Translations under genes and position numbers: made by a program
Origin: an uncultured Gammaproteobacteria bacterium
GTDB lineage: Bacteria; Patescibacteriota; Microgenomatia; Levybacterales; GWA1-39-11
Direction of reading: 5' to 3'
NCBI GenBank assembly: GCA_964406795.1
Contig: CAYOTA010000008.1
Coordinates: 1 to 56,223, forward strand
DNA: 56,223 nucleotides
Shown: piece by piece, positions 13,235 through 45,083 of the stretch
How the letters are laid out: each line of letters begins with the position of its first letter
Position numbering within the stretch: the first letter of the stretch is position 1
The notes under the pieces: generated by a model
What the model was told of the DNA's origin: nothing
The model's database searches: none
Seen by the model: the letters and a program-made list of their open reading frames with translations, nothing else

Positions 13235-13469
13235 ACTACTTTCGGCTTTTAACGTTTTAGCTCTATTTGCAATTGCTAATAGTTCACCTTTCTCTGCCTT
13301 TATTTGATCCATAAACTGACCTATCTTAGTATGTAATGCAACTCGTGATGATTTTGATACTTCACGCGTATTGCAGAGGAGAGCTTCTGTTTTCGAATCA
13401 GTCCGATAAAGGCTTCCTACATGTCCATCATTATCCATCTTTTATAGAAATTCACGTTGCCCACAGTTA

Positions 13470-13512
13470 TCAATACAAATCAACCCCAGGGGTTGCGTAG
13501 CTACGCAACCTA
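13470..13512. repeat. REP-like palindromic repeat, copy A
   Basis: Contains the perfect 20-nt palindrome GGTTGCGTAG/CTACGCAACC (13491-13510), overlapped by a second palindrome CAACCCC-A-GGGGTTG (13481-13495). Confidence 0.9.
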
Positions 13513-13517
13513 GATAT

Positions 13518-14183
13518 TTACGCTTCAAGAAGTAGATGCATGATTCGGGACAGTTTTCGTTGGTAGTCCGCTCGATCATTCACAAATTCTTTATATTCAT
13601 CTTTAGTTTTAAACTGAGACAGGATTATATTTTTGTCATACCAGCTATAGTTAGAATTACTTATATACTCGGGATAAGATGACCATCTGTACGCTTCAAG
13701 TTCCCGTGTATCTCTTACCACATGGGATGTGTATGGGTTGAGATGAATATATCTTGAAACATGAAGAAGTTGAGTAGTATCTTCAATGTGTACGGATTTA
13801 AATTCTCCCTGTAATAAGTGTCCACTTCTTTTGTGTTTAGTATTAATATATCTAGTTAGGCTATTTTGAAAATTTCCCATAAATTTTGCAATTCCATTAT
13901 CCTGTTCTTGTTGAATTAATAAATGAAAATGATTAGGCATTAAACATGCACAAATAACATTTACAATTTTTTCTCTTGGGTGAGTAGACGCTGTAGTCTT
14001 GTATTCATCACTCATTGCAATATATTTGGAATAACTTGGGAGATTTTTGTAGGTGTAGTAACTTAATATTCCCATTGTCCGTTTGTAATCAGCTTTATTG
14101 AAGAATATTGGTTGTTTATTTACACCACGATTGAAAACATGGTAGTATTCTCCAGTAACAAGAGGAACTTTTCTAGTTGGCAT
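13518..14183 (-). CDS. HUH/Y1 transposase (REP-associated tyrosine transposase / IS200-like, Y1_Tnp family)
   Basis: YYHVFNRG, then the HUH motif CLMPNHFHLLI, then YIHLNPY carrying the candidate catalytic Tyr. The ORF extends to a TTG at 14219, with ATGs at 14204 and 14183. 14183 (MPTRK) aligns best with the paralog at 43345..43995. Confidence 0.8.
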   Translation of the reverse strand: MPTRKVPLVTGEYYHVFNRGVNKQPIFFNKADYKRTMGILSYYTYKNLPSYSKYIAMSDEYKTTASTHPREKIVNVICACLMPNHFHLLIQQEQDNGIAKFMGNFQNSLTRYINTKHKRSGHLLQGEFKSVHIEDTTQLLHVSRYIHLNPYTSHVVRDTRELEAYRWSSYPEYISNSNYSWYDKNIILSQFKTKDEYKEFVNDRADYQRKLSRIMHLLLEA

Positions 14184-14215
14184 ATTACTAACATAATAAA
14201 CCATATCCTGAGATG

Positions 14216-14258
14216 TCAATACGAATCAACCCCAGGGGTTGCGTAGCTACGCAACCTA
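14216..14258. repeat. REP-like palindromic repeat, copy B
   Basis: Same sequence and orientation as copy A. It overlaps the 5' end and upstream region of the transposase ORF. Confidence 0.9.
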
Positions 14259-14331
14259 AGGATTTGAATTATTTGAAGAAAGCTTTAGGTTAATCCTATC
14301 AAGGGTTGTTAAAATCTGGTAAAATGAAGCC

Positions 14332-24772: not shown

Positions 24773-25687
24773 GTGCCTACACTAAAAACCAAAATTGATG
24801 AGAAAGAAGTACTCTTATTTCTTCAAAAAAATATTGACCCTCAGATTACTTCTCTGGAATTCTTAAAGGGCGGGGAAATGTCTCAAGCATTTAGTTATGC
24901 AAGTAGTGAAAAAGATTATGTAATCAGACTTTATAAAAATGATGAAGCTTTTAAAAAAGATAAGTTTGCCTATGATAATTACTCTTCCGTTAAACTTTCC
25001 ATCCCAAAAGTGTACGAGATAGGCAAATTTTCAGAGACGTTGTATTACTGTATCTCAAGCCTCATAAAAGGCACAATTCTAGATCTATTAAGCTTTGAGC
25101 TACAAGGTAAAATGATAGATAAGGAGTTAGATATTATGCACGCAATACATAACACAAAAGTTGTAGGTAATGGATACGGGTGGTGGGATGAGAATGGGAA
25201 CGGAACATATACCAGTTGGAATAACTATATTTTGCATAAAAAAGATGAAATTTATTCAAATTGGGAAATGTTATATAAAAATTCATTTTTAGAAAAAGAA
25301 ATGATAGACATAATTTATCAGGAAATAAATAAGCTAGTAGCATTTCTACCGGAAAATAGGTATTTAGTTCACGCAGATCTTGGGTGGAGCAATGAGATTT
25401 CTGATAACACAAATATTACGGGAGTATTTGATTGGGGCAATTCTGTGTATGGGGACTTTTTATATGATGTTTCATTTAAACATTTCTGGTCATCCGACTC
25501 ACAGTTTTTGCAAAGATATTTAGACTCTTTAGATAAAAACGAATTTAATTTAAAGCATGTAGAAGAGAGAACTAGATGCTACCTGTTGCATATCGGACTT
25601 GGTGTATTAGGATTTTTTGCTGAATCCGGTCAGAAAGATAAGTACGACAAAAATAAAAAAAGAATTGAAGGTCTTCTTTCAATTTAA
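24773..25687 (+). CDS. Aminoglycoside/choline-kinase-type phosphotransferase (APH family)
   Basis: Brenner motif HADLGWSN, then FDWGNSVYGD. GTG start at 24773, 6 nt after the extended -10 TGaTATACT (24758-24766). Confidence 0.75.
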   Translation: MPTLKTKIDEKEVLLFLQKNIDPQITSLEFLKGGEMSQAFSYASSEKDYVIRLYKNDEAFKKDKFAYDNYSSVKLSIPKVYEIGKFSETLYYCISSLIKGTILDLLSFELQGKMIDKELDIMHAIHNTKVVGNGYGWWDENGNGTYTSWNNYILHKKDEIYSNWEMLYKNSFLEKEMIDIIYQEINKLVAFLPENRYLVHADLGWSNEISDNTNITGVFDWGNSVYGDFLYDVSFKHFWSSDSQFLQRYLDSLDKNEFNLKHVEERTRCYLLHIGLGVLGFFAESGQKDKYDKNKKRIEGLLSI

Positions 25688-25720
25688 CCTCAGAACAATC
25701 CGTTCTCCCGAGGTTAAGCT

Positions 25721-25762
25721 ACAAATCAACCCCCGAGGTTGCATAGCTACGCAACCTAAGGT
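25721..25762. repeat. Orphan REP-like repeat, copy C (degenerate)
   Basis: ACAAATCAACCCCCGAGGTTGCATAGCTACGCAACCTAAGG is the same family and orientation as copies A and B, with 3-4 substitutions. A partial extra copy, CCCGAGGTTAAGCTAC, precedes it at 25707-25722. Confidence 0.85.
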
Positions 25763-25837
25763 TACATGTTAATTCTGAAGATGGTAAGAACATTTGTACT
25801 AGAATACTAGCTTCAATACGTGATATAATTATTACTT

Positions 25838-26389
25838 ATGGTAGTGCAAGATTTAAAAGCCGGTGCCACATGGGAAGAAGAAGGAAATTTGTTTCGTGTT
25901 ATTACTTACGAACACGTTAAAATGGGACGTGGATCTGCCACAATAAAAGTTAAGGCCAGAAATGTGCGTACAGGTGCCGTAATTGAAAAAGGCTTTACAA
26001 ATGGTGCTCAGGTTAATGCAGTTAATTTAGATAAAAGAGAATACCAATTTCTTTATAAAGACTCAGAGTCAGCAAATTTCATGAACCCTATAACCTTTGA
26101 GCAAGTTATAGCACCATTAGATGTATTAGACGGACATCAATATTTGCAAGATGGAAAAAATGTTACCTTAGAATTTTATGGAGATGAAGTACTGGGAGTA
26201 GTGCTTCCACCTAAAATAACACTAAGTGTTTTAGAAACGGACCCTGGAGTTAAAGGAAACAGTGCTTCAAATATGTATAAAGACGCAACACTTGAAAACG
26301 GTACTAAAACACGTGTTCCGTTATTTATTAATATAGGGGACTTAGTAATAATTGACACTCGGGATGGTAGCTATACGAAGCGAGCGTAG
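25838..26389 (+). CDS. efp: Elongation factor P
   Basis: DLKAGATWEEEGNLFRVITYEHVKMGRGSATIKVKARNVRTG, 183 aa, three-domain EF-P pattern. Confidence 0.95.
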   Translation: MVVQDLKAGATWEEEGNLFRVITYEHVKMGRGSATIKVKARNVRTGAVIEKGFTNGAQVNAVNLDKREYQFLYKDSESANFMNPITFEQVIAPLDVLDGHQYLQDGKNVTLEFYGDEVLGVVLPPKITLSVLETDPGVKGNSASNMYKDATLENGTKTRVPLFINIGDLVIIDTRDGSYTKRA

Positions 26390-33390: not shown

Positions 33391-34186
33391 TATCCTATAG
33401 TTTTATCCTATAATAGTATTTACTTATTTAGTAATGTGGATATCTTTGAGGCTAGATAGTATGTTTCACCAGCCTCAAATTAGCCTCAAAATAAGCATTT
33501 AGAGTGCCGCGACTTTTCACGCTTCTGTCAGGGTGAGGCCAGCGCCACAGGTATGCATGCGTACCCAAGCCTAAAGTACACAAAAACGAAAAAAACACGA
33601 AACGCTATTTTTTTTAAATACCCTAGTGGTGTAGTATTGAGGCTATTACTACCAAAAAGTGTTAATAAATCAACAAAAAATATACTCAATTTCACCTGTG
33701 CAATTATACTTTTCACGCTTCTAGGTATGCTTTTTTTGTCCCCCCGGAGGAGGGGCTACATGAGGCTGAATTTACATAGATCTCCCTTGGTTAACTTCAT
33801 ACACTGACCTTACAAGCGAATCTACTCCGCAGTGTATTACCCTCGCCTCTAGATAGTACATTTTATTATGTCGTACAATAATACTTTTACGACATGATCC
33901 ACACATGTTGGGAGAGGGGCTCACAGGTTCTTTGTGTGTGTTTTGTGTATCGAATTCAATCCTTATATGTAAGGTCACAATGAATTCATGCCTTATTCTT
34001 CTGTTCCTGCTCTTGTGCCAAAAACGCTGTATTATAGGTTCTTCAGATTTCATGAGTTAAAATGACCGTATTTTTACAAATCCTTATAGTGGCTGCAAAC
34101 TTAGGAGGTATAACCAGTGAACTTAGGTATTAAACGGGCCTAGAATCGCATTGTAGAGGGTCATTTCTGAGGCTAAAAGATGCAGT

Positions 34187-34651
34187 CTATAAATGGCGGG
34201 TAAATGCTGATGTAATGTCGTTTGCAGCATTCAAATTAGCTCGATTCATGATTATAGGACCACGATTCATAAATGGAAATATTTTCTTTCCGTTTTTATC
34301 AGATATAGATATTTCAGTTCCAATTTCAAAAATAATAATGTTAGTTATAGGAGTAAGATCTGTGGCTGATTCGGAAGGAATAAGTTTATCAAGATCTGTT
34401 GAAATGTATGCCCGCAAGAGATATACCGGGCTTAGTGCGCCGTCCATACCCGGAACGAGTCTTTCACTAAAAGCGAATGGTTTAGTAACGTCATGCGTCA
34501 TGATGCCTACAGCATCTCTAAGCGTGGATATATTGGCTTTGATTTGGTCTTGAAGACGTTTATTTTCAAAGTTTCTTGCAGCCTCAGATCCAGAATTCCA
34601 GCGCCAGAACGTACGCATTAACGGTTCGTTTTCAATATCAGCATTTTTCAT
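34187..34651 (-). CDS. Orphan hypothetical protein inside the repeat-rich island
   Basis: 162-aa ORF (34187..34675), or 154 aa from MKNADIENE at 34651. No recognisable motif. It is the only reasonably protein-like ORF between 33292 and 35003. Confidence 0.35.
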   Translation of the reverse strand: MKNADIENEPLMRTFWRWNSGSEAARNFENKRLQDQIKANISTLRDAVGIMTHDVTKPFAFSERLVPGMDGALSPVYLLRAYISTDLDKLIPSESATDLTPITNIIIFEIGTEISISDKNGKKIFPFMNRGPIIMNRANLNAANDITSAFTRHL

Positions 34652-34770
34652 AACTGAACTATAACAAGGCACCATAAGCTTGTCAAGTAAAGCTGTATCA
34701 AGTTACTTTACGAATAATGTTTATGTCGCACATTGTTAATATCTAGCCTCCCGCGTGAAAAGTTTCTCAT

Positions 34771-34785
34771 TCAAACTATATCATT
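34771..34785. repeat. Right arm of the 15-nt inverted repeat (TCAAACTATATCATT)
   Basis: Exact reverse complement of 33376-33390. The pair encloses 1,410 bp. Confidence 0.85.
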
Positions 34786-35003
34786 AGTATTTTATACTTT
34801 TATATTCGTGGCTAATTGAGGTGTAACCTCAATTGAGGCTAGATTCTTATGTATTCTTCTCGTTTATTTCTACCTAGCTTGACATGCGTACTTGTTATGT
34901 CGTACATTATTATGACTACTCTGCTCTTATCTGTAACGAGCAAAGTAGGCGGAAGAATAATTAACTACAATTCGCGCATTTCTTTTAAATATAAGTTGAT
35001 TCT

Positions 35004-35945
35004 ATGGAAAATAATTCAAATTTAGAAAAATATATTACTCAGTTTTTAGAATATTTAGAAATTGAAAAAAATTCCAGTAAGTTAACTATCCGCAATTACA
35101 GATTTTACCTAGAGCGTTTTCGTGCCTGGTTTGAGCCTGCTTACCCAGATAAAAATATATCAGATATCACAACGGATGTTATGCGTAAATATCGCATGTA
35201 CCTATCACAGTTAACCGATGAAAAAGGCATGACGCTTATGAAAATTACTCAGTCATATCACATAATTGCGTTGCGTTCTATGCTAAGGTACCTTGTAAGA
35301 CAAGACATGGAGACACTGGCTCCTGAAAAAATTGATTTACCCAAGGCTGAATCACGCTCGTTGCTATTTTTAGAGGAAAACCATTTACGTCAGTTATTTA
35401 ACTCCGTCGACACGTCTACGGAAAAAGGTATGCGGGACCGTGCTATTTTGGAAATGTTATTCTCAACCGGCCTGCGTGTGTCCGAGTTAACTAGACTGAA
35501 TAAAGATCAATTAAATTTTAAAACACGTGAGTTTGGTGTTATAGGAAAAGGAAATAAAGTGAGGATTGTATTTTTATCGGATAACGCTGTCATGTGGCTT
35601 GAAAAATATCTAGATACCAGGCTTGATCCCTATAAGCCACTTTTTATAAGATACGCCAAAGGTACAAGTGCTGAAAATGATGGGGAGAAAATGAGATTAA
35701 CACCCAGATCTGTGGAGCGTATACTTGAGAAATATGTCAGGGCTTCCAGAATTCCTGTAAAAGCCACACCACACACCATGCGCCATTCATTTGCGACAGA
35801 TTTACTTTCAAATGGGGCGGACTTAAGATCTGTTCAGGAAATGCTGGGACACAAAAATATTTCTACAACTCAAATTTATACTCACGTAACCAATCCTCAG
35901 CTAAAAGAGGTCCACCGTAAGTTTCACAAAGGAAACAAAAGGTAA
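35004..35945 (+). CDS. Tyrosine recombinase, XerC/XerD family
   Basis: N-terminal SAM-like domain (FLEYLEIEKNSSKLTIRNYRFYL), catalytic region ARDRAILEMLFSTGLRVSEL and HTMRHSFATDLLSNGADLRSVQEMLGHKNISTTQIYTHV (R..HxxR..Y). Confidence 0.9.
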   Translation: MENNSNLEKYITQFLEYLEIEKNSSKLTIRNYRFYLERFRAWFEPAYPDKNISDITTDVMRKYRMYLSQLTDEKGMTLMKITQSYHIIALRSMLRYLVRQDMETLAPEKIDLPKAESRSLLFLEENHLRQLFNSVDTSTEKGMRDRAILEMLFSTGLRVSELTRLNKDQLNFKTREFGVIGKGNKVRIVFLSDNAVMWLEKYLDTRLDPYKPLFIRYAKGTSAENDGEKMRLTPRSVERILEKYVRASRIPVKATPHTMRHSFATDLLSNGADLRSVQEMLGHKNISTTQIYTHVTNPQLKEVHRKFHKGNKR

Positions 35946-35951
35946 GATATT

Positions 35952-37313
35952 TTAGTGGATTATTGAGAGTTTGAATGGAGGGAGTTCAGCCTTGGGCTCA
36001 GCATAAATATTGTCTCCTCGTTCCAGCGTATCTAAAATCTGAATATATCTATAAAACGCTGCATTTGTCCAGCCAAATCCTCCCTGGCTTTGGTAATGAA
36101 AGTCAACGCCAATGTCTCCCTTTACCGCGTCAATTTTTTCAAAGAATGTTTTGTGTTCTCTAAATATTTTGGCGTGAGTTTTAATGTACTTTTCCATAAG
36201 CCGTTTAGCATCTTTTACAAATCCGTATTTAAGTAATCCTATTACTGTTAAATATTCCAGAGGCGGCCATGAATTAGGATAATCCCACTGCTTTGGAAGT
36301 AGTATTTCTTCCAGAGCCGGCACATATCTTTCAGGCAGTTTTGAAAGATCAACTTTTGGGGCAAGTGATTCTTTTGTAGTTATAGCAAGTCCATAGGGTG
36401 TTTCAAAATGCTTGAGTTTTTTAACCATACGTTTTGCCTGTTCTTTTGTTGCAATGCCTGCCCATAAAGGAGTAAACCCTGCAAGAGATAAAAATTCACT
36501 ACGTCTTTTATATACGTATCCGTAGTCATAAAAAAATCCGCTTTTTTCATCCCACATAAGCCTATTAATTTCTTTTTTCCGCTCTTCGGCAATACCTTTC
36601 CAGTTTATTTCGTCATTTAGTTCTCCTAGGTGTTGTGCTATCTTTCCAAAGTCACGTTCGTATTTAAACAGTAAAACATTTAGGTCTATCGGTAAAAACT
36701 CATCACATCTGTTATAAAACCTGGAGGTAAAGTCCCATCCTGATTCCAGCTCTGATGAGTGAGCATACCCTATATCTCGGTCACCATACCTGCTAAGCGC
36801 GTGCCCTTTAACTTTGTGATTATACAGTCCTTCATGGTCAAGCCAAATTTTTTCATATTCTTCTTTTGCCGCCATTGTCATGTTTTTTAACCAAGTTTGG
36901 TGCCTTTTTAAATTAAAAAGGAAAACTTTCTTTAGTTTTTTGTGTTTCAGGTAGCGAAAATAATGCCCATTATACGTGTCTAATATCATAGATGTTAAAA
37001 ACGGAGGCTGAGATCTTCCCATGGAAGCTGGAGAATTAAAGTTAGGAATAATTCCATACTTTTTATATGTAAATACAAAATTTTCCACCATGTTTTTTAG
37101 TAGCCACTCACGTTTTGTTCCTATAACACCTCGTAAAATAAAAAAGGAATCCCAATAAAACATGAATTTGAATTTTTTAGCGTTGGGGGTTACATAAGGG
37201 TGAGGAATGGTTATGACATTGTGATTAACAACTCTCTTCTCAGGCTTATGAATCACTTGATCCCAAAACGATTCTATATAGTCTAGGCAATCTTTGTATT
37301 GTTCACTCCACAT
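35952..37313 (-). CDS. Trehalase-like glycoside hydrolase (GH37)
   Basis: KFKFMFYWDSFF resembles trehalase signature 1 (RFxExYYWDSY). QWDYPNSWPP is close to signature 2 (QWDxPxGWAP). 453 aa. Confidence 0.75.
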   Translation of the reverse strand: MWSEQYKDCLDYIESFWDQVIHKPEKRVVNHNVITIPHPYVTPNAKKFKFMFYWDSFFILRGVIGTKREWLLKNMVENFVFTYKKYGIIPNFNSPASMGRSQPPFLTSMILDTYNGHYFRYLKHKKLKKVFLFNLKRHQTWLKNMTMAAKEEYEKIWLDHEGLYNHKVKGHALSRYGDRDIGYAHSSELESGWDFTSRFYNRCDEFLPIDLNVLLFKYERDFGKIAQHLGELNDEINWKGIAEERKKEINRLMWDEKSGFFYDYGYVYKRRSEFLSLAGFTPLWAGIATKEQAKRMVKKLKHFETPYGLAITTKESLAPKVDLSKLPERYVPALEEILLPKQWDYPNSWPPLEYLTVIGLLKYGFVKDAKRLMEKYIKTHAKIFREHKTFFEKIDAVKGDIGVDFHYQSQGGFGWTNAAFYRYIQILDTLERGDNIYAEPKAELPPFKLSIIH

Positions 37314-42359: not shown

Positions 42360-43202
42360 CTAATCACTAGAAGTTTGTTTTTCTGCTGCAGTTATCAAAT
42401 TTTGAAAAAGATAGGAAAGATTTACCGGCCCTACTCCACCCGGGGTAGGACTCCAAGCAGAGGCTTTGTCTTTTATTTCGTCCACATTGTAATCTCCTTT
42501 TAATTTTCCGTCTTCTTTGTGTGTTCCAACACCAACTAATATTACCCCCTTTGATAAATATTCTGGTTTTATTACATTACTCTTACCAACCGCGCTAATA
42601 ATTAGTGTAGACTTTTTAAGAATACTTTCTACGTCCGTTGTTTTACTGTCTATGACTTGAAAAGGTACTTTTAAAGTCTGAAGCCATTCTATTGCAGGAC
42701 CCCCGGCTGTTTCTCCTTTTCCTGCTATGCATACGGACTGATTTAACAGCACTTTTTCTAATTCCGAGGCTGTTGTCACTCGCAAGGCCTCTCTGATAAA
42801 ACGTTGAATAGCCATAAGAACTGGAACAATGTAGATCGAATCATCTCGAAACCCATCAATATCTTTTACTGGACTGATGCCTTCTATAACTTTTTTTCTA
42901 TCAAATTGTTTTGGAATTGGTCTTTGGACAATAATTCCGTGTACGTTTTTATTTTCATTTAATACTTTTATTGTGTTGTGTAACTCTTCTTCATCTTCAC
43001 CTGTAAGTTTTATTAAATTTGTTTTAATACCAAGTCTTTCAGCCGTTTTTAACTTTTGGGAAACATAAGATAACCATGCCTCTTCTTTACCCACTGTAAC
43101 TATTGCTAACTCTGGGATAACTTCTTGATTGTTTAGCTTCAAGATTCTTTCACGAACATCATTTAGTATCTCCTCAGCTATAATTTTGCCTGACATTTCC
43201 AT
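42360..43202 (-). CDS. folD: Bifunctional methylenetetrahydrofolate dehydrogenase/cyclohydrolase
   Basis: GKIIAEEI N-terminus, VHGIIVQRPIP, DIDGF, and the TPGGVGPV motif near the C-terminus. Confidence 0.9.
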   Translation of the reverse strand: MEMSGKIIAEEILNDVRERILKLNNQEVIPELAIVTVGKEEAWLSYVSQKLKTAERLGIKTNLIKLTGEDEEELHNTIKVLNENKNVHGIIVQRPIPKQFDRKKVIEGISPVKDIDGFRDDSIYIVPVLMAIQRFIREALRVTTASELEKVLLNQSVCIAGKGETAGGPAIEWLQTLKVPFQVIDSKTTDVESILKKSTLIISAVGKSNVIKPEYLSKGVILVGVGTHKEDGKLKGDYNVDEIKDKASAWSPTPGGVGPVNLSYLFQNLITAAEKQTSSD

Positions 43203-43307
43203 CCAGTAATTATACAGTGGGCAACGTAGTTTAAAAAGGAGTAGTTAATGACAATCGCACTTTTTAGGTAGACCATCCCATCCTTAGCTATATCTTTTAA
43301 GCAACTA

Positions 43308-43357
43308 ACGTTTACGTTTATTCCAATTCGGAAGTAGATTACGGCTAAACATCAGAA
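43308..43357. repeat. Unit 2 flanking repeat, stop-codon side
   Basis: ACGTTTACGTTTATTCCAATTCGGAAGTAGATTACGGCTAAACATCAGAA. The transposase stop codon lies inside it. Confidence 0.7.
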
Positions 43358-43995
43358 TCATGAAGGAGATGTTTTATGGTGTTCAGTTGTTTTGCATAAT
43401 TAATGTGGTCCGTGGTGAAGGATCTGTACATCTTAATATTCTTGAATTGCTCAGTTATTATTTTTCGATTACAGATGGTTTTACTAGAGACTCCTACATG
43501 TTCACGGTAAGAAGACCACTCATAATCTTCAGGTTTATTGATGGGCATTTGTGAGACCACCGGATTTAAATGAATATATCTATCCACATGTATCAATTGT
43601 TCTGTAGTTTCAATCCATACTGCCTTGAAATTGCCCTGATATAAAGGTCCCTCCCTCTTTTGTTTAACGTTCACATATTTTGCATAGCTATTCATGAGCT
43701 TTCTCATAAATGTAGAGATTCCTTCGTCTTCTCTTTGACAGAGTATGAAATGAAAATGATTGGGCATGAGACAATACGAGACTATATCCACAGCATTGGT
43801 AAGTTTTTGGGGAGTAGACGTGTGCTGCTTGAAGTGTGAAAAGCTTCCACCGTTTGGATTTACTTTGTAATACTGAGTAGCTTGCAAGAACCGAATATGA
43901 TCTCGTCTAGTGTGGAATATAGGCATTCTGGCTACACCTCTATTAAACACATGGTAGTATTCATTATTAGAAAATATTACATTTCTACGTGACAT
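43345..43995 (-). CDS. HUH/Y1 transposase (RAYT / IS200-like), paralog 2
   Basis: EYYHVFNRG, HUH motif CLMPNHFHFIL, YQGNFKAV, and RYIHLNPV with the candidate catalytic Tyr. It aligns along its whole length with the protein at 13518..14183. Confidence 0.8.
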   Translation of the reverse strand: MSRRNVIFSNNEYYHVFNRGVARMPIFHTRRDHIRFLQATQYYKVNPNGGSFSHFKQHTSTPQKLTNAVDIVSYCLMPNHFHFILCQREDEGISTFMRKLMNSYAKYVNVKQKREGPLYQGNFKAVWIETTEQLIHVDRYIHLNPVVSQMPINKPEDYEWSSYREHVGVSSKTICNRKIITEQFKNIKMYRSFTTDHINYAKQLNTIKHLLHDSDV

Positions 43996-44043
43996 AACTT
44001 AATTAAATAGTATGTAATAACAAATAAGCAATGTGTAGTTCTA

Positions 44044-44093
44044 ATGTTTAGTTCTGTTTTACTTCGGAAGTGGAACGAGGCTAAACATTAGAA
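44044..44093. repeat. Unit 2 flanking repeat, start-codon side
   Basis: ATGTTTAGTTCTGTTTTACTTCGGAAGTGGAACGAGGCTAAACATTAGAA. A perfect 10-bp stem forms between TAATGTTTAG (44042-44051) and CTAAACATTA (44081-44090). Confidence 0.7.
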
Positions 44094-44116
44094 ATGTTTA
44101 CAGTTTCGGGAATGTG

Positions 44117-44476
44117 TTAAGGTGTGGGGTTTTTAAAGGGAGGAATATTAAATCTCTCACAAAATGCAGGATATAATTCGGGTCTTTCAAGTGCGTCTGC
44201 ATAACTAATAGGAAACTGACCGCTCCACACCTCAGGTTCTACTCCCAGCTCATGTGCTCTTAAAACCGCATCGTCAACTTGTAATTTTTCTGCGATTTCC
44301 CATACTCTAAATCCTCCTTCTGTGCGAGCATCTCCCCAATAAGAGCCCATAGCGCGAGCATGTTCTGCTTCTGCTTGCATTCGAGCTTCTGCCTTTGTTG
44401 CCTCTTGTCGGATATTACGCATTTCTTGGGTTAAGGCTTTGGTTACCCTACCGATTGCACGTTCATATTGACTCAT
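44117..44476 (-). CDS. Hypothetical protein
   Basis: ATG at 44476 (MSQYERAIGR) avoids overlap with the upstream Rpf-like gene. Ala/Arg/Glu-rich and locally GC-richer. No motif recognised. Confidence 0.45.
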   Translation of the reverse strand: MSQYERAIGRVTKALTQEMRNIRQEATKAEARMQAEAEHARAMGSYWGDARTEGGFRVWEIAEKLQVDDAVLRAHELGVEPEVWSGQFPISYADALERPELYPAFCERFNIPPFKNPTP

Positions 44477-44507
44477 TGAAATAATATATACACAAAAATA
44501 AGAAGTA

Positions 44508-45083
44508 TTACAAGAGGCCGAGTTTTTTGGAGCATCCACTCCATGGGCCCCATCCTCGTTTTTCCTGAAGCATTTTGCCTCTCATAATTTGTTCATCTCT
44601 GGATGCTTCATGCGGCATATTGGTACCCCCCACCCCACGCCATGCGCTTTCTGAAAATTGAAGGCCACCGTAATATCCATTTCCCGTATTAATTCCCCAA
44701 TTACCTTTAGATTCACACTGAGCCAACTTTTCCCACACATCGGCATCTGCGCTTGATACTTGGACAGGTGAAGAAGTTGGTGCAGGTGTTGGACTTGGGC
44801 TTGGGGTTATTGTTGCCGTGCTGTAGCTATAAGTTACTTCTGATGTGTCCGTGATAGTTTCAAATGTTGAATTATTGTACCAACTGGATACCTCAGGGAG
44901 CACAAATACTTCGTCATCTTGTTTGGAAAAAGCTTGAGGAACGTGAATGAAAAGAATGATGGCAGGGATAGAAAGTGCAAAAAGTATTATCGCCAATCTT
45001 TCACCAAAAAATAAAAGAACAGTTTGTAACCACCGCTCAATTTTTTTCTCAGGCCTTACTTCTACTAAATTTATTTCATCCAT
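44508..45083 (-). CDS. Resuscitation-promoting-factor (Rpf) type transglycosylase-like domain protein, membrane anchored
   Basis: The C-terminal WEKLAQCESKGNWGINTGNGYYGGLQFSESAWRGVGG...GWGPWSGCSKKLGL matches the Rpf domain almost motif for motif, including the catalytic CES-Glu and the conserved Cys pair. N-terminal TM helix and a PSPSPTP linker. ATG at 45083, while the track ORF starts at a TTG at 45095. Confidence 0.85.
   Translation of the reverse strand: MDEINLVEVRPEKKIERWLQTVLLFFGERLAIILFALSIPAIILFIHVPQAFSKQDDEVFVLPEVSSWYNNSTFETITDTSEVTYSYSTATITPSPSPTPAPTSSPVQVSSADADVWEKLAQCESKGNWGINTGNGYYGGLQFSESAWRGVGGTNMPHEASRDEQIMRGKMLQEKRGWGPWSGCSKKLGLL

Follow-up and report, generated by a model that had tools for sequence, protein, structure and literature searches.

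The window analysed here, a 56,223-nucleotide (nt) contig of an uncultured bacterium of patescibacterial lineage (CAYOTA010000008.1), contains a gene for a Y1/HUH tyrosine-transposase-like protein at 43345–43995 that is flanked by two same-orientation copies of a repeat. The hairpin that this repeat specifies is conserved with covariation in orthologous loci, and gene and repeats are absent together from some relatives. The 43-kb locus is probably a module of the REPtron/TIRtron type, i.e. a class-2 Y1 (HUH) gene carried with two cognate hairpins. Its parts are the following.

43345–43995, minus strand: Y1/HUH tyrosine-transposase-like gene, 216 amino acids (aa), from the list of open reading frames (ORFs), Pfam Y1_Tnp, homolog alignment and AF2/PDB match.
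44039–44093, minus strand: start-side repeat copy, a 55-nt compound hairpin, from repeat alignment, fold, covariance-model match and presence in orthologs.
43305–43357, minus strand: stop-side repeat copy, in the same orientation as the start-side copy, from repeat alignment and covariance-model match.
About 43245–44116 (approximate), minus strand: the 872 nt absent at the empty sites of relatives, from comparison with loci L104, L106 and L103.

The 216-aa product is an intact Y1/HUH protein. Pfam Y1_Tnp (PF01797) recognized it with 31.2 bits, and the only other family protein of the window with 39.8 bits (cut-off 23). Its HUH motif is H80-F-H82, and the predicted catalytic Tyr140 lies inside RYIHLNP; H80, H82 and Y140 were invariant in 36 homologs, as were R139, I141, H142, L143, N144 and P145 around the tyrosine. 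The AF2 model of the protein (pLDDT 85.7, pTM 0.84) had its best PDB match in E. coli TnpAREP with REP hairpin bound (4er8; E 4.5e-7, TM 0.68 on the target); the TnpA transposases of ISDra2 and IS608 came next (2xm3, 2a6o). A sequence-profile search of the PDB led to the same families as the fold search, and a single-sequence search returned weak matches only (E 0.23). Residues 163–211 form four short helices in the model; Pfam detected no C-terminal helix-turn-helix (HTH)-like domain there (Bac_DnaA_C, HTH_23, HTH_28), Y1_Tnp being the sole family at E ≤ 0.01.

An earlier note on this DNA had described the direct repeat and counted 36 of 50 matches between 43308–43357 and 44044–44093, a number that our recount reproduced exactly. 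Taken as 43305–43357 versus 44041–44093, the flanks match at 39 of 53 positions without gaps. The copies are 33–36% GC and only 74% identical, which would suit a chance resemblance in AT-rich DNA. We consider such an explanation vanishingly improbable: the local alignment of the two flanks scored 41, while 2000 dinucleotide-preserving shuffles gave a mean of 17.4 and a maximum of 29, and 1972 pairs of random window segments did not exceed 35. The flanks are therefore more similar than shuffled AT-rich sequence, the doubt that the earlier note had itself raised.

The start-side hairpin ends about 43–45 nt upstream of the ATG and consists of a 13-base-pair (bp) outer stem (44039–44051 with 44081–44093, read from the sequence) and an inner stem closing a CCG loop. 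The 10-bp stem noticed previously (44042–44051 with 44081–44090) is real, but is part of this longer one, with 14 pairs in the computed fold. Folding gave −12.9 kcal/mol with z = −6.6 on either strand, in keeping with the structure that the earlier note had proposed for this copy. The first 13 nt of the stop-side copy coincide with the last four codons of the gene plus its TAG stop. A covariance model located the start-side copy with 68.8 bits at 44029–44094 on the minus strand (44.2 bits in reverse orientation, this copy being near-palindromic) and the stop-side copy with 61.6 bits at 43293–43358 on the same strand (12.7 bits in reverse). Over the 56-kb window the model found these two flanking copies only, the next-best match reaching 13 bits.

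Pattern searches agreed. The search pattern suggested beforehand had to be corrected, since with its 9-nt spacer it yielded no match even in the window, the true block spacing being 7 nt; with a 7-nt spacer, its matches were confined to the two flanking copies. Loosened to a degenerate form and run on 185,579 species genomes, a collection without this lineage, the pattern gave four matches in unrelated phyla, none of them with the right arm, and these were dismissed as chance. An Rfam search with the hairpin produced no match. Among public sequencing runs, one contained identical but fragmentary contigs, in which neither a joint nor an empty-site form was seen. A drinking-water metagenome contig (run X4) matching 43089–43328 carries at its end an extra tandem copy of the 21 bases 43309–43329, which fall inside the stop-side repeat.

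To place the locus among its relatives, we searched 5.8 billion proteins and obtained 4537 relatives, of which the named ones belong to Patescibacteria (Levybacteria, Daviesbacteria). The seven closest loci were taken: L001 (90% aa identity), L010 (76%), L020 (71%), L002 (71%), L019 (69%), L017 (59%) and L016 (58%). The window, L001 and L017 agree in their gene order (gyrA, hydrolase, transglycosylase, Y1, folD, Mur ligase), and L002 has this order minus the hydrolase. Both repeats are present in the same orientation in all seven loci, one ending ~40–50 nt before the start codon and the other overlapping or abutting the stop codon. In an alignment of 16 copies, 75.5% of cells pair, versus 35–45% when the 3′ partners are slid by 1–3 columns; ten pairs are altered on both sides, i.e. 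show compensatory change, and the covariation score was reached by 1 of 500 shuffles. The eight start-side copies alone pair at 81.5%. Out of 21 possible Watson–Crick pairs, start-side copies retain 14–19 and stop-side copies 6–16, the stop-side fold being good in L002, L010 and L016. A TAGC(C) sequence (GTAG in L016, L017 and L019) is conserved inside the outer stem, 5–7 nt before the inner stem. Run on 42 kb of orthologous loci, the covariance model returned the flanking pairs only. The hairpins are thus conserved with covariation, and chance similarity of the flanks is refuted by the shuffles, the repeat pair in every ortholog, the covariation and the covariance-model scan with its two sites of 62–69 bits.

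The two copies of a locus have also changed in a coordinated way. Changes specific to one lineage and common to both copies were found in L002, L016 and L017, e.g. ACATCCGATGT in L002 and CTTCCAGGG in L016, and copies from one locus are more alike than copies from different loci (permutation p 0.002–0.006); three lineages account for this likeness, which the window itself does not show. Two further observations concern these loci. Directly after the stop-side copy of L016 stands a third, partial hairpin (L016:5690–5712, TTCCACTTCCGAAGTGAAATAG) of the type common in other orthologs, which differs in its loop from L016's own two copies. In L010, the stop-side hairpin and folD are separated by a 308-aa gene on the opposite strand (L010:1089–2128), which lacks a Pfam match and has GC-rich DNA ahead of it.

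The arrangement extends to the wider family. We collected 80 metagenome loci from JGI (34–48% identical), 65 of which had enough flank for analysis. In 59 of the 65, a repeat common to the upstream and downstream flanks of the gene scored above the 95th percentile of comparisons between loci (in 49, above the 99th). These repeats differ from locus to locus, the common theme being a short GC-rich stem such as CCACCTCCGAGGTGG. Direct orientation was seen in 26 loci and inverted orientation in 20; in the other 13 the repeats are palindromic and their orientation hence undecidable. Extra solo copies are rare, with one each in L030 and L050 and two upstream in L066. Specifically, L030:9021–9061 (after gyrB) and L050:7690–7708 (after a 246-aa gene) are third copies of the locus-specific hairpin, in the same orientation and one gene further downstream. 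The contention of the earlier note that the arrangement is functional rather than coincidental is thus supported by the flanks, which exceed shuffles, by repeats and fold kept in orthologs, by the prevalence of own repeats in the family and, as described below, by the joint absence of gene and hairpins from empty sites and the like behaviour of the 13.5-kb paralog in its own orthologs.

Relatives picked by FolD identity provided three empty sites from which the gene and both hairpins are missing together, as the earlier note had proposed to check: L103 (84%), L104/L105 (85%) and L106 (77%). In L103 the transglycosylase is followed directly by folD; in L104/L105 and L106 an ORF of 119–122 aa stands between the two. 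There is no Y1 gene at these loci, and the covariance model found no hairpin anywhere in them. Homology between filled and empty sites breaks off at the stop codon of the 119-aa ORF and resumes at TAACT[AC]CTCCTTT, ~48 nt before the folD start, which places the extra DNA of the window at about 43245–44116. Besides the gene and its two hairpins, this unit of 872 nt takes in ~23 nt at the start side and ~60 nt at the stop side, and each junction has TTAA; with FolD of the relatives only ~85% identical, its boundaries are fuzzy rather than base-exact. Since the empty sites have neither gene nor hairpin, both hairpins belong to the ~870-nt cassette, which some relatives have and others lack.

The L016 cassette, which includes both hairpins, immediately follows the hydrolase gene, about 1 kb from its position in the window. 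Downstream of it come a transglycosylase remnant (residues 150–187) and a homolog of the 119-aa ORF (ORF123), so that the cassette is on the other side of these two than in the window. The 119-aa ORF itself has no Pfam family and occupies 44117–44476 on the minus strand (listed as 44117–44539 from a GTG), between transglycosylase and cassette. It has homologs at the same place in L104 (74% identity) and L106, and the L016 homolog (48%) is found across the cassette; L001, L103, L002 and L017 lack it.

Comparison of the window with L001 revealed that the 43345–43995 gene is intact and constrained. Nonsynonymous differences per site (pN) were 0.052 for Y1, 0.082 for gyrA, 0.165 for folD and 0.19–0.20 for the hydrolase and the Mur ligase; with a pN below that of gyrA, the Y1 protein is at least as constrained as GyrA in this pair. 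The synonymous value (pS) of Y1 was 0.565 (corrected dN 0.054, dS 1.05, ratio 0.05). Six of seven flanking genes had a pS of 0.71–0.82, at saturation, and folD had 0.568, its pS being low in every genome pair. In other pairs the pS of Y1 was saturated as well (0.75–0.77), and the paralogous Y1 gene gave 0.70 between the window and L001 genomes. As most pairs are saturated at 0.7–0.8, the low Y1 value is suggestive of later exchange, but not decisive. Likewise, the Y1 protein is 90% identical between window and L001 while flanking proteins are 47–74% identical (GyrA, 89.5%); together with the low pS, this means that constraint on the gene is very strong or else that the cassette was exchanged later. 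The synteny gyrA–hydrolase–transglycosylase–Y1–folD is kept down to 58% identity (L001, L002 and L017; roughly in L016), and Y1 and FolD give broadly congruent identity matrices. The history of the cassette may have been one of old presence with repeated clean loss, or of later exchange inserting at the same place; both fit.

Clean presence and absence are also what an insertion sequence (IS) would produce. According to this explanation, which we regard as possible though doubtful, the locus is an active, autonomous IS in the style of IS200/IS605 with a class-2 (RAYT-like) Y1 enzyme; the same-strand hairpins would be its left and right ends, and the ~870-nt unit would excise as a single-strand circle and insert after a short target, perhaps TTAA. 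The likeness to IS200, IS608 and ISDra2 is considerable: a Y1 HUH enzyme; subterminal hairpins at both ends on one strand, here the gene strand according to the covariance-model scores, if with a weak fold on the stop side; a size and layout like that of IS200 (about 0.7 kb); and clean empty sites that have no inverted repeats and no hairpin scar. The shifted cassette in L016, TTAA at both junctions, a Y1 pS below that of six of seven flanking genes, and the absence of the cassette from the closest relatives of the window, set against a 90%-identical copy in the more distant L001, point the same way. IS200/IS605 elements insert 3′ of a fixed tetranucleotide without target duplication; here the empty sites are clean and the junctions have TTAA, with ends too blurred by divergence to be matched to such a target base by base. 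However, TTAA is a common word in DNA of 37% GC. Whereas IS200/IS605 elements occur as several near-identical copies per genome, the window has one copy per type in 56 kb, the other family member being only 41% identical. Across long divergence the cassette has stayed at a single chromosomal position, shared by lineages down to 58% identity. The enzyme is class-2 with a 70-aa tail, 216 aa long and with a Y---NP motif (YIHLNP), in contrast to the Y---Q, core-only IS200 transposases of ~150 aa (Quentin 2018, PMC6006769). Finally, the stop-side hairpin of the window has decayed, and the inverted hairpins of 20 of the 59 family loci would be unusable for strand-specific excision of the IS200 type.

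A related idea sees in the cassette a living intermediate on the way from IS200-type transposons to domesticated RAYTs, in which a class-2 Y1 enzyme still moves its own gene between same-strand hairpins, site-specifically upstream of folD, with exchange among related Patescibacteria. We think this unlikely; it would explain the 90% identity despite flanking genes at ~72%, the empty sites in the closest relatives and the L016 shift.

The hairpins could instead be regulatory signals in transcript or DNA (terminator, attenuator, mRNA stabilizer or operator for autoregulation) and not substrates for cutting and joining. Their distances to start and stop codons are fixed across orthologs and family, the neighbouring genes are all co-directional so that the hairpins would be transcribed, and REPs of other bacteria are known to stabilize mRNA (Di Nocera 2013). 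Still, a regulatory role of this kind is improbable. A terminator and promoter scan found no T-run and no terminator-like or promoter-like consensus at either repeat copy, and the Rfam search, as said, was negative. The empty sites show that the neighbours manage without the hairpins, and G:U-compatible mismatches are not in excess on the sense strand. Moreover, repeats that flank the gene on either side and also occur singly behind unrelated genes (L030, L050 and, for the paralogous repeat, 25.7 kb in the window) fit a DNA substrate better.

The REPtron/TIRtron-type module thus remains our preferred explanation, and several results weigh against it. The stop-side copy of the window, which the earlier note had also taken to be structured, folds no better than shuffles (z = 0.1 and −0.4); its right arm has decayed, leaving 13 of 21 Watson–Crick pairs. 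The stop-side hairpin is nearly gone in L020 too, so that some lineages may have lost any activity that depends on two good hairpins. Mismatches in the stems (28 G:T versus 20 A:C) do not indicate the folding strand. The REP_Tyr_transpos equivalog model of NCBIfam (NF047646) scored 52.4 and 52.6 for the two proteins of the window, below its cut-off of 80. In addition, no dispersed copy of the 43-kb hairpin occurred in the 56-kb window, in the orthologous loci (42 kb) or in further related loci (56 kb), and the REP-spreading role of classical RAYTs is not seen for the 43-kb paralog in this sequence.

For such a module, we propose that one cognate hairpin ~45 nt before the start codon and another overlapping the stop codon would fold when the DNA is single-stranded, and that the protein would recognize the folded stem-loop together with flanking bases. 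It would then cut and rejoin the DNA through Tyr140 and the HUH metal site, as do E. coli TnpAREP and the TnpA of IS200/IS605. Binding and cleavage of the hairpins by the 216-aa protein are predicted by analogy with structures and assays of its relatives (4er8; Corneloup 2021); the strand used, and the effect of the activity on cell or element, can likewise only be inferred. In this lineage the unit is single-copy per type and mostly passes on vertically at one chromosomal site, under strong purifying selection, although clean loss or relocation of the whole can still occur.

Among described systems, the closest by protein motifs is subclass 2.1 of TnpA-Y1, the largest subclass, which Quentin 2018 (PMC6006769) equated with the TIRYT of Di Nocera 2013 (PMC3733652) and which also corresponds to Bertels group 1; Quentin 2018 found no REP-like structures for it. 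Its motifs (PMC6006769, Table 1) are NH[YF]H, a [WF]Q-type motif, Y[IV]HLNP and 'SS' in the proximal tail, with a median length of ~238 aa. By inspection, the proteins of the window match this subclass (NHFH, (Y/L)QG, YIHLNP, WSSY; 216–221 aa). As in TIRYT/TIRtron loci (PMC3733652), copy number is low, each gene is accompanied by its own repeat at a set distance, the downstream copy reaching or overlapping the 3′ end of the gene, and repeats are often private to a locus and partly self-complementary. Unlike in TIRtrons, the copies of the window are direct and not inverted, the 43-kb repeat is a long 55-nt compound hairpin, GGGGWSAS is absent from both repeat types of the window (by reading), the protein tail has no Pfam Bac_DnaA_C or HTH domain, and the host is of Patescibacteria type, covered by neither PMC3733652 nor PMC6006769. 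A 'transposase' of a Rhodospirillum rubrum plasmid, 27% identical and with YIELNP and WSSY, illustrates the relation. Its gene is flanked by a perfect 19-nt repeat, TTAAAAGGGGTCAGACCCC, which contains a small palindrome and the GGGGWSAS of TIRtrons (PMC3733652). The repeats are inverted, one ending ~35 nt before the start and the other running downstream from the last base of the stop codon; the geometry is therefore common to a classical TIRtron, and only orientation and sequence differ.

RAYT/TnpAREP REPtrons (E. coli YafM, 4er8) are the best structural match and have the Y---NP motif in common with the 43-kb locus. They are also alike in being single-copy, vertically inherited and slowly evolving genes with flanking cognate hairpins (Bertels 2017), and in that paralogs of one genome each have their own hairpin family. 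The window differs in its sub-threshold equivalog scores (52 versus 80 bits), in having no GT[AG]G directly at the foot of the hairpin, in direct flanking copies where REPtrons have inverted pairs, and in that the 43-kb paralog lacks a dispersed, high-copy REP family in the ~150 kb of sequence scanned. Our literature searches returned no description of this arrangement of a Y1 gene with hairpins in Patescibacteria.

The window contains a second module of the same design, with the following parts.

13518–14183, minus strand: paralogous Y1 gene, 221 aa, 41% identical, from ORF list, Pfam, protein alignment and orthologs.
14211–14265, minus strand: start-side repeat of the paralog with a GC-rich double palindrome, from repeat search, fold and orthologs.
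13465–13519, minus strand: stop-side repeat of the paralog in direct orientation, from repeat search, fold and orthologs.
25711–25765, minus strand: solo third copy of the paralog repeat, intergenic and upstream of efp, from repeat search.

A profile built from the 36 homologs found only these two family genes in the window. They are collinear over their full length (E 1e-55), as had been reported; among the sequence blocks then listed as shared, YYHVFNRG, LMPNHFH, RYIHLNP and WSSY hold for both, but 'YQGxFK' reads LQGEFK in the paralog at 13518–14183. The two copies of the paralog repeat are identical at 42 of 43 core positions. Neither alignment nor covariance model revealed any similarity to the 43-kb repeat, in line with the earlier description of the two as completely different; they have in common only a general design, a short GC-rich stem with flanking conserved bases. 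The solo copy, 11.5 kb from the paralog, has three mismatches to the paralog repeat in its 35-nt core and lies between a kinase-like ORF (24773–25687) and efp (25838–26389). In two relatives the paralog is fixed beside cysS, where its own repeats are kept and have changed in concert; one of the two is on the same 201-kb contig as L001, which thus carries one ortholog of each Y1 gene of the window. As a side observation, at ~34000–36000 in the window the GC skew switches from positive to negative and genes change from mostly plus to mostly minus strand, i.e. they converge. This may mark the replication terminus, or only gene strand bias; if a terminus does lie here, replication forks would meet the two Y1 paralogs in opposite orientations.

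It was already known that Y1 genes can have cognate flanking repeats and that one genome can contain several paralogs with a separate repeat for each. New are the same-orientation hairpin pair, repeats private to a locus as far as ~150 kb of sequence shows, near-universal hairpin pairs in a Patescibacteria branch with the motifs of a subclass described as being without them, and the delimitation of the unit by filled and empty sites. Class-2 Y1 enzymes (RAYT, TIRYT) are widespread and their role is still debated. In contrast to the account of subclass 2.1 by Quentin 2018 (PMC6006769), nearly every gene of this branch comes with a cognate hairpin pair of its own, which co-varies with it, and the empty sites mark gene and hairpins as one unit. 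Such matched protein/hairpin pairs, including two from one genome, lend themselves to biochemistry of substrate recognition, and the natural series of direct and inverted arrangements and of filled and empty sites lets one ask whether these enzymes still mobilize DNA. Annotators of these reduced genomes should not take a 'transposase' call as evidence of recent mobility.

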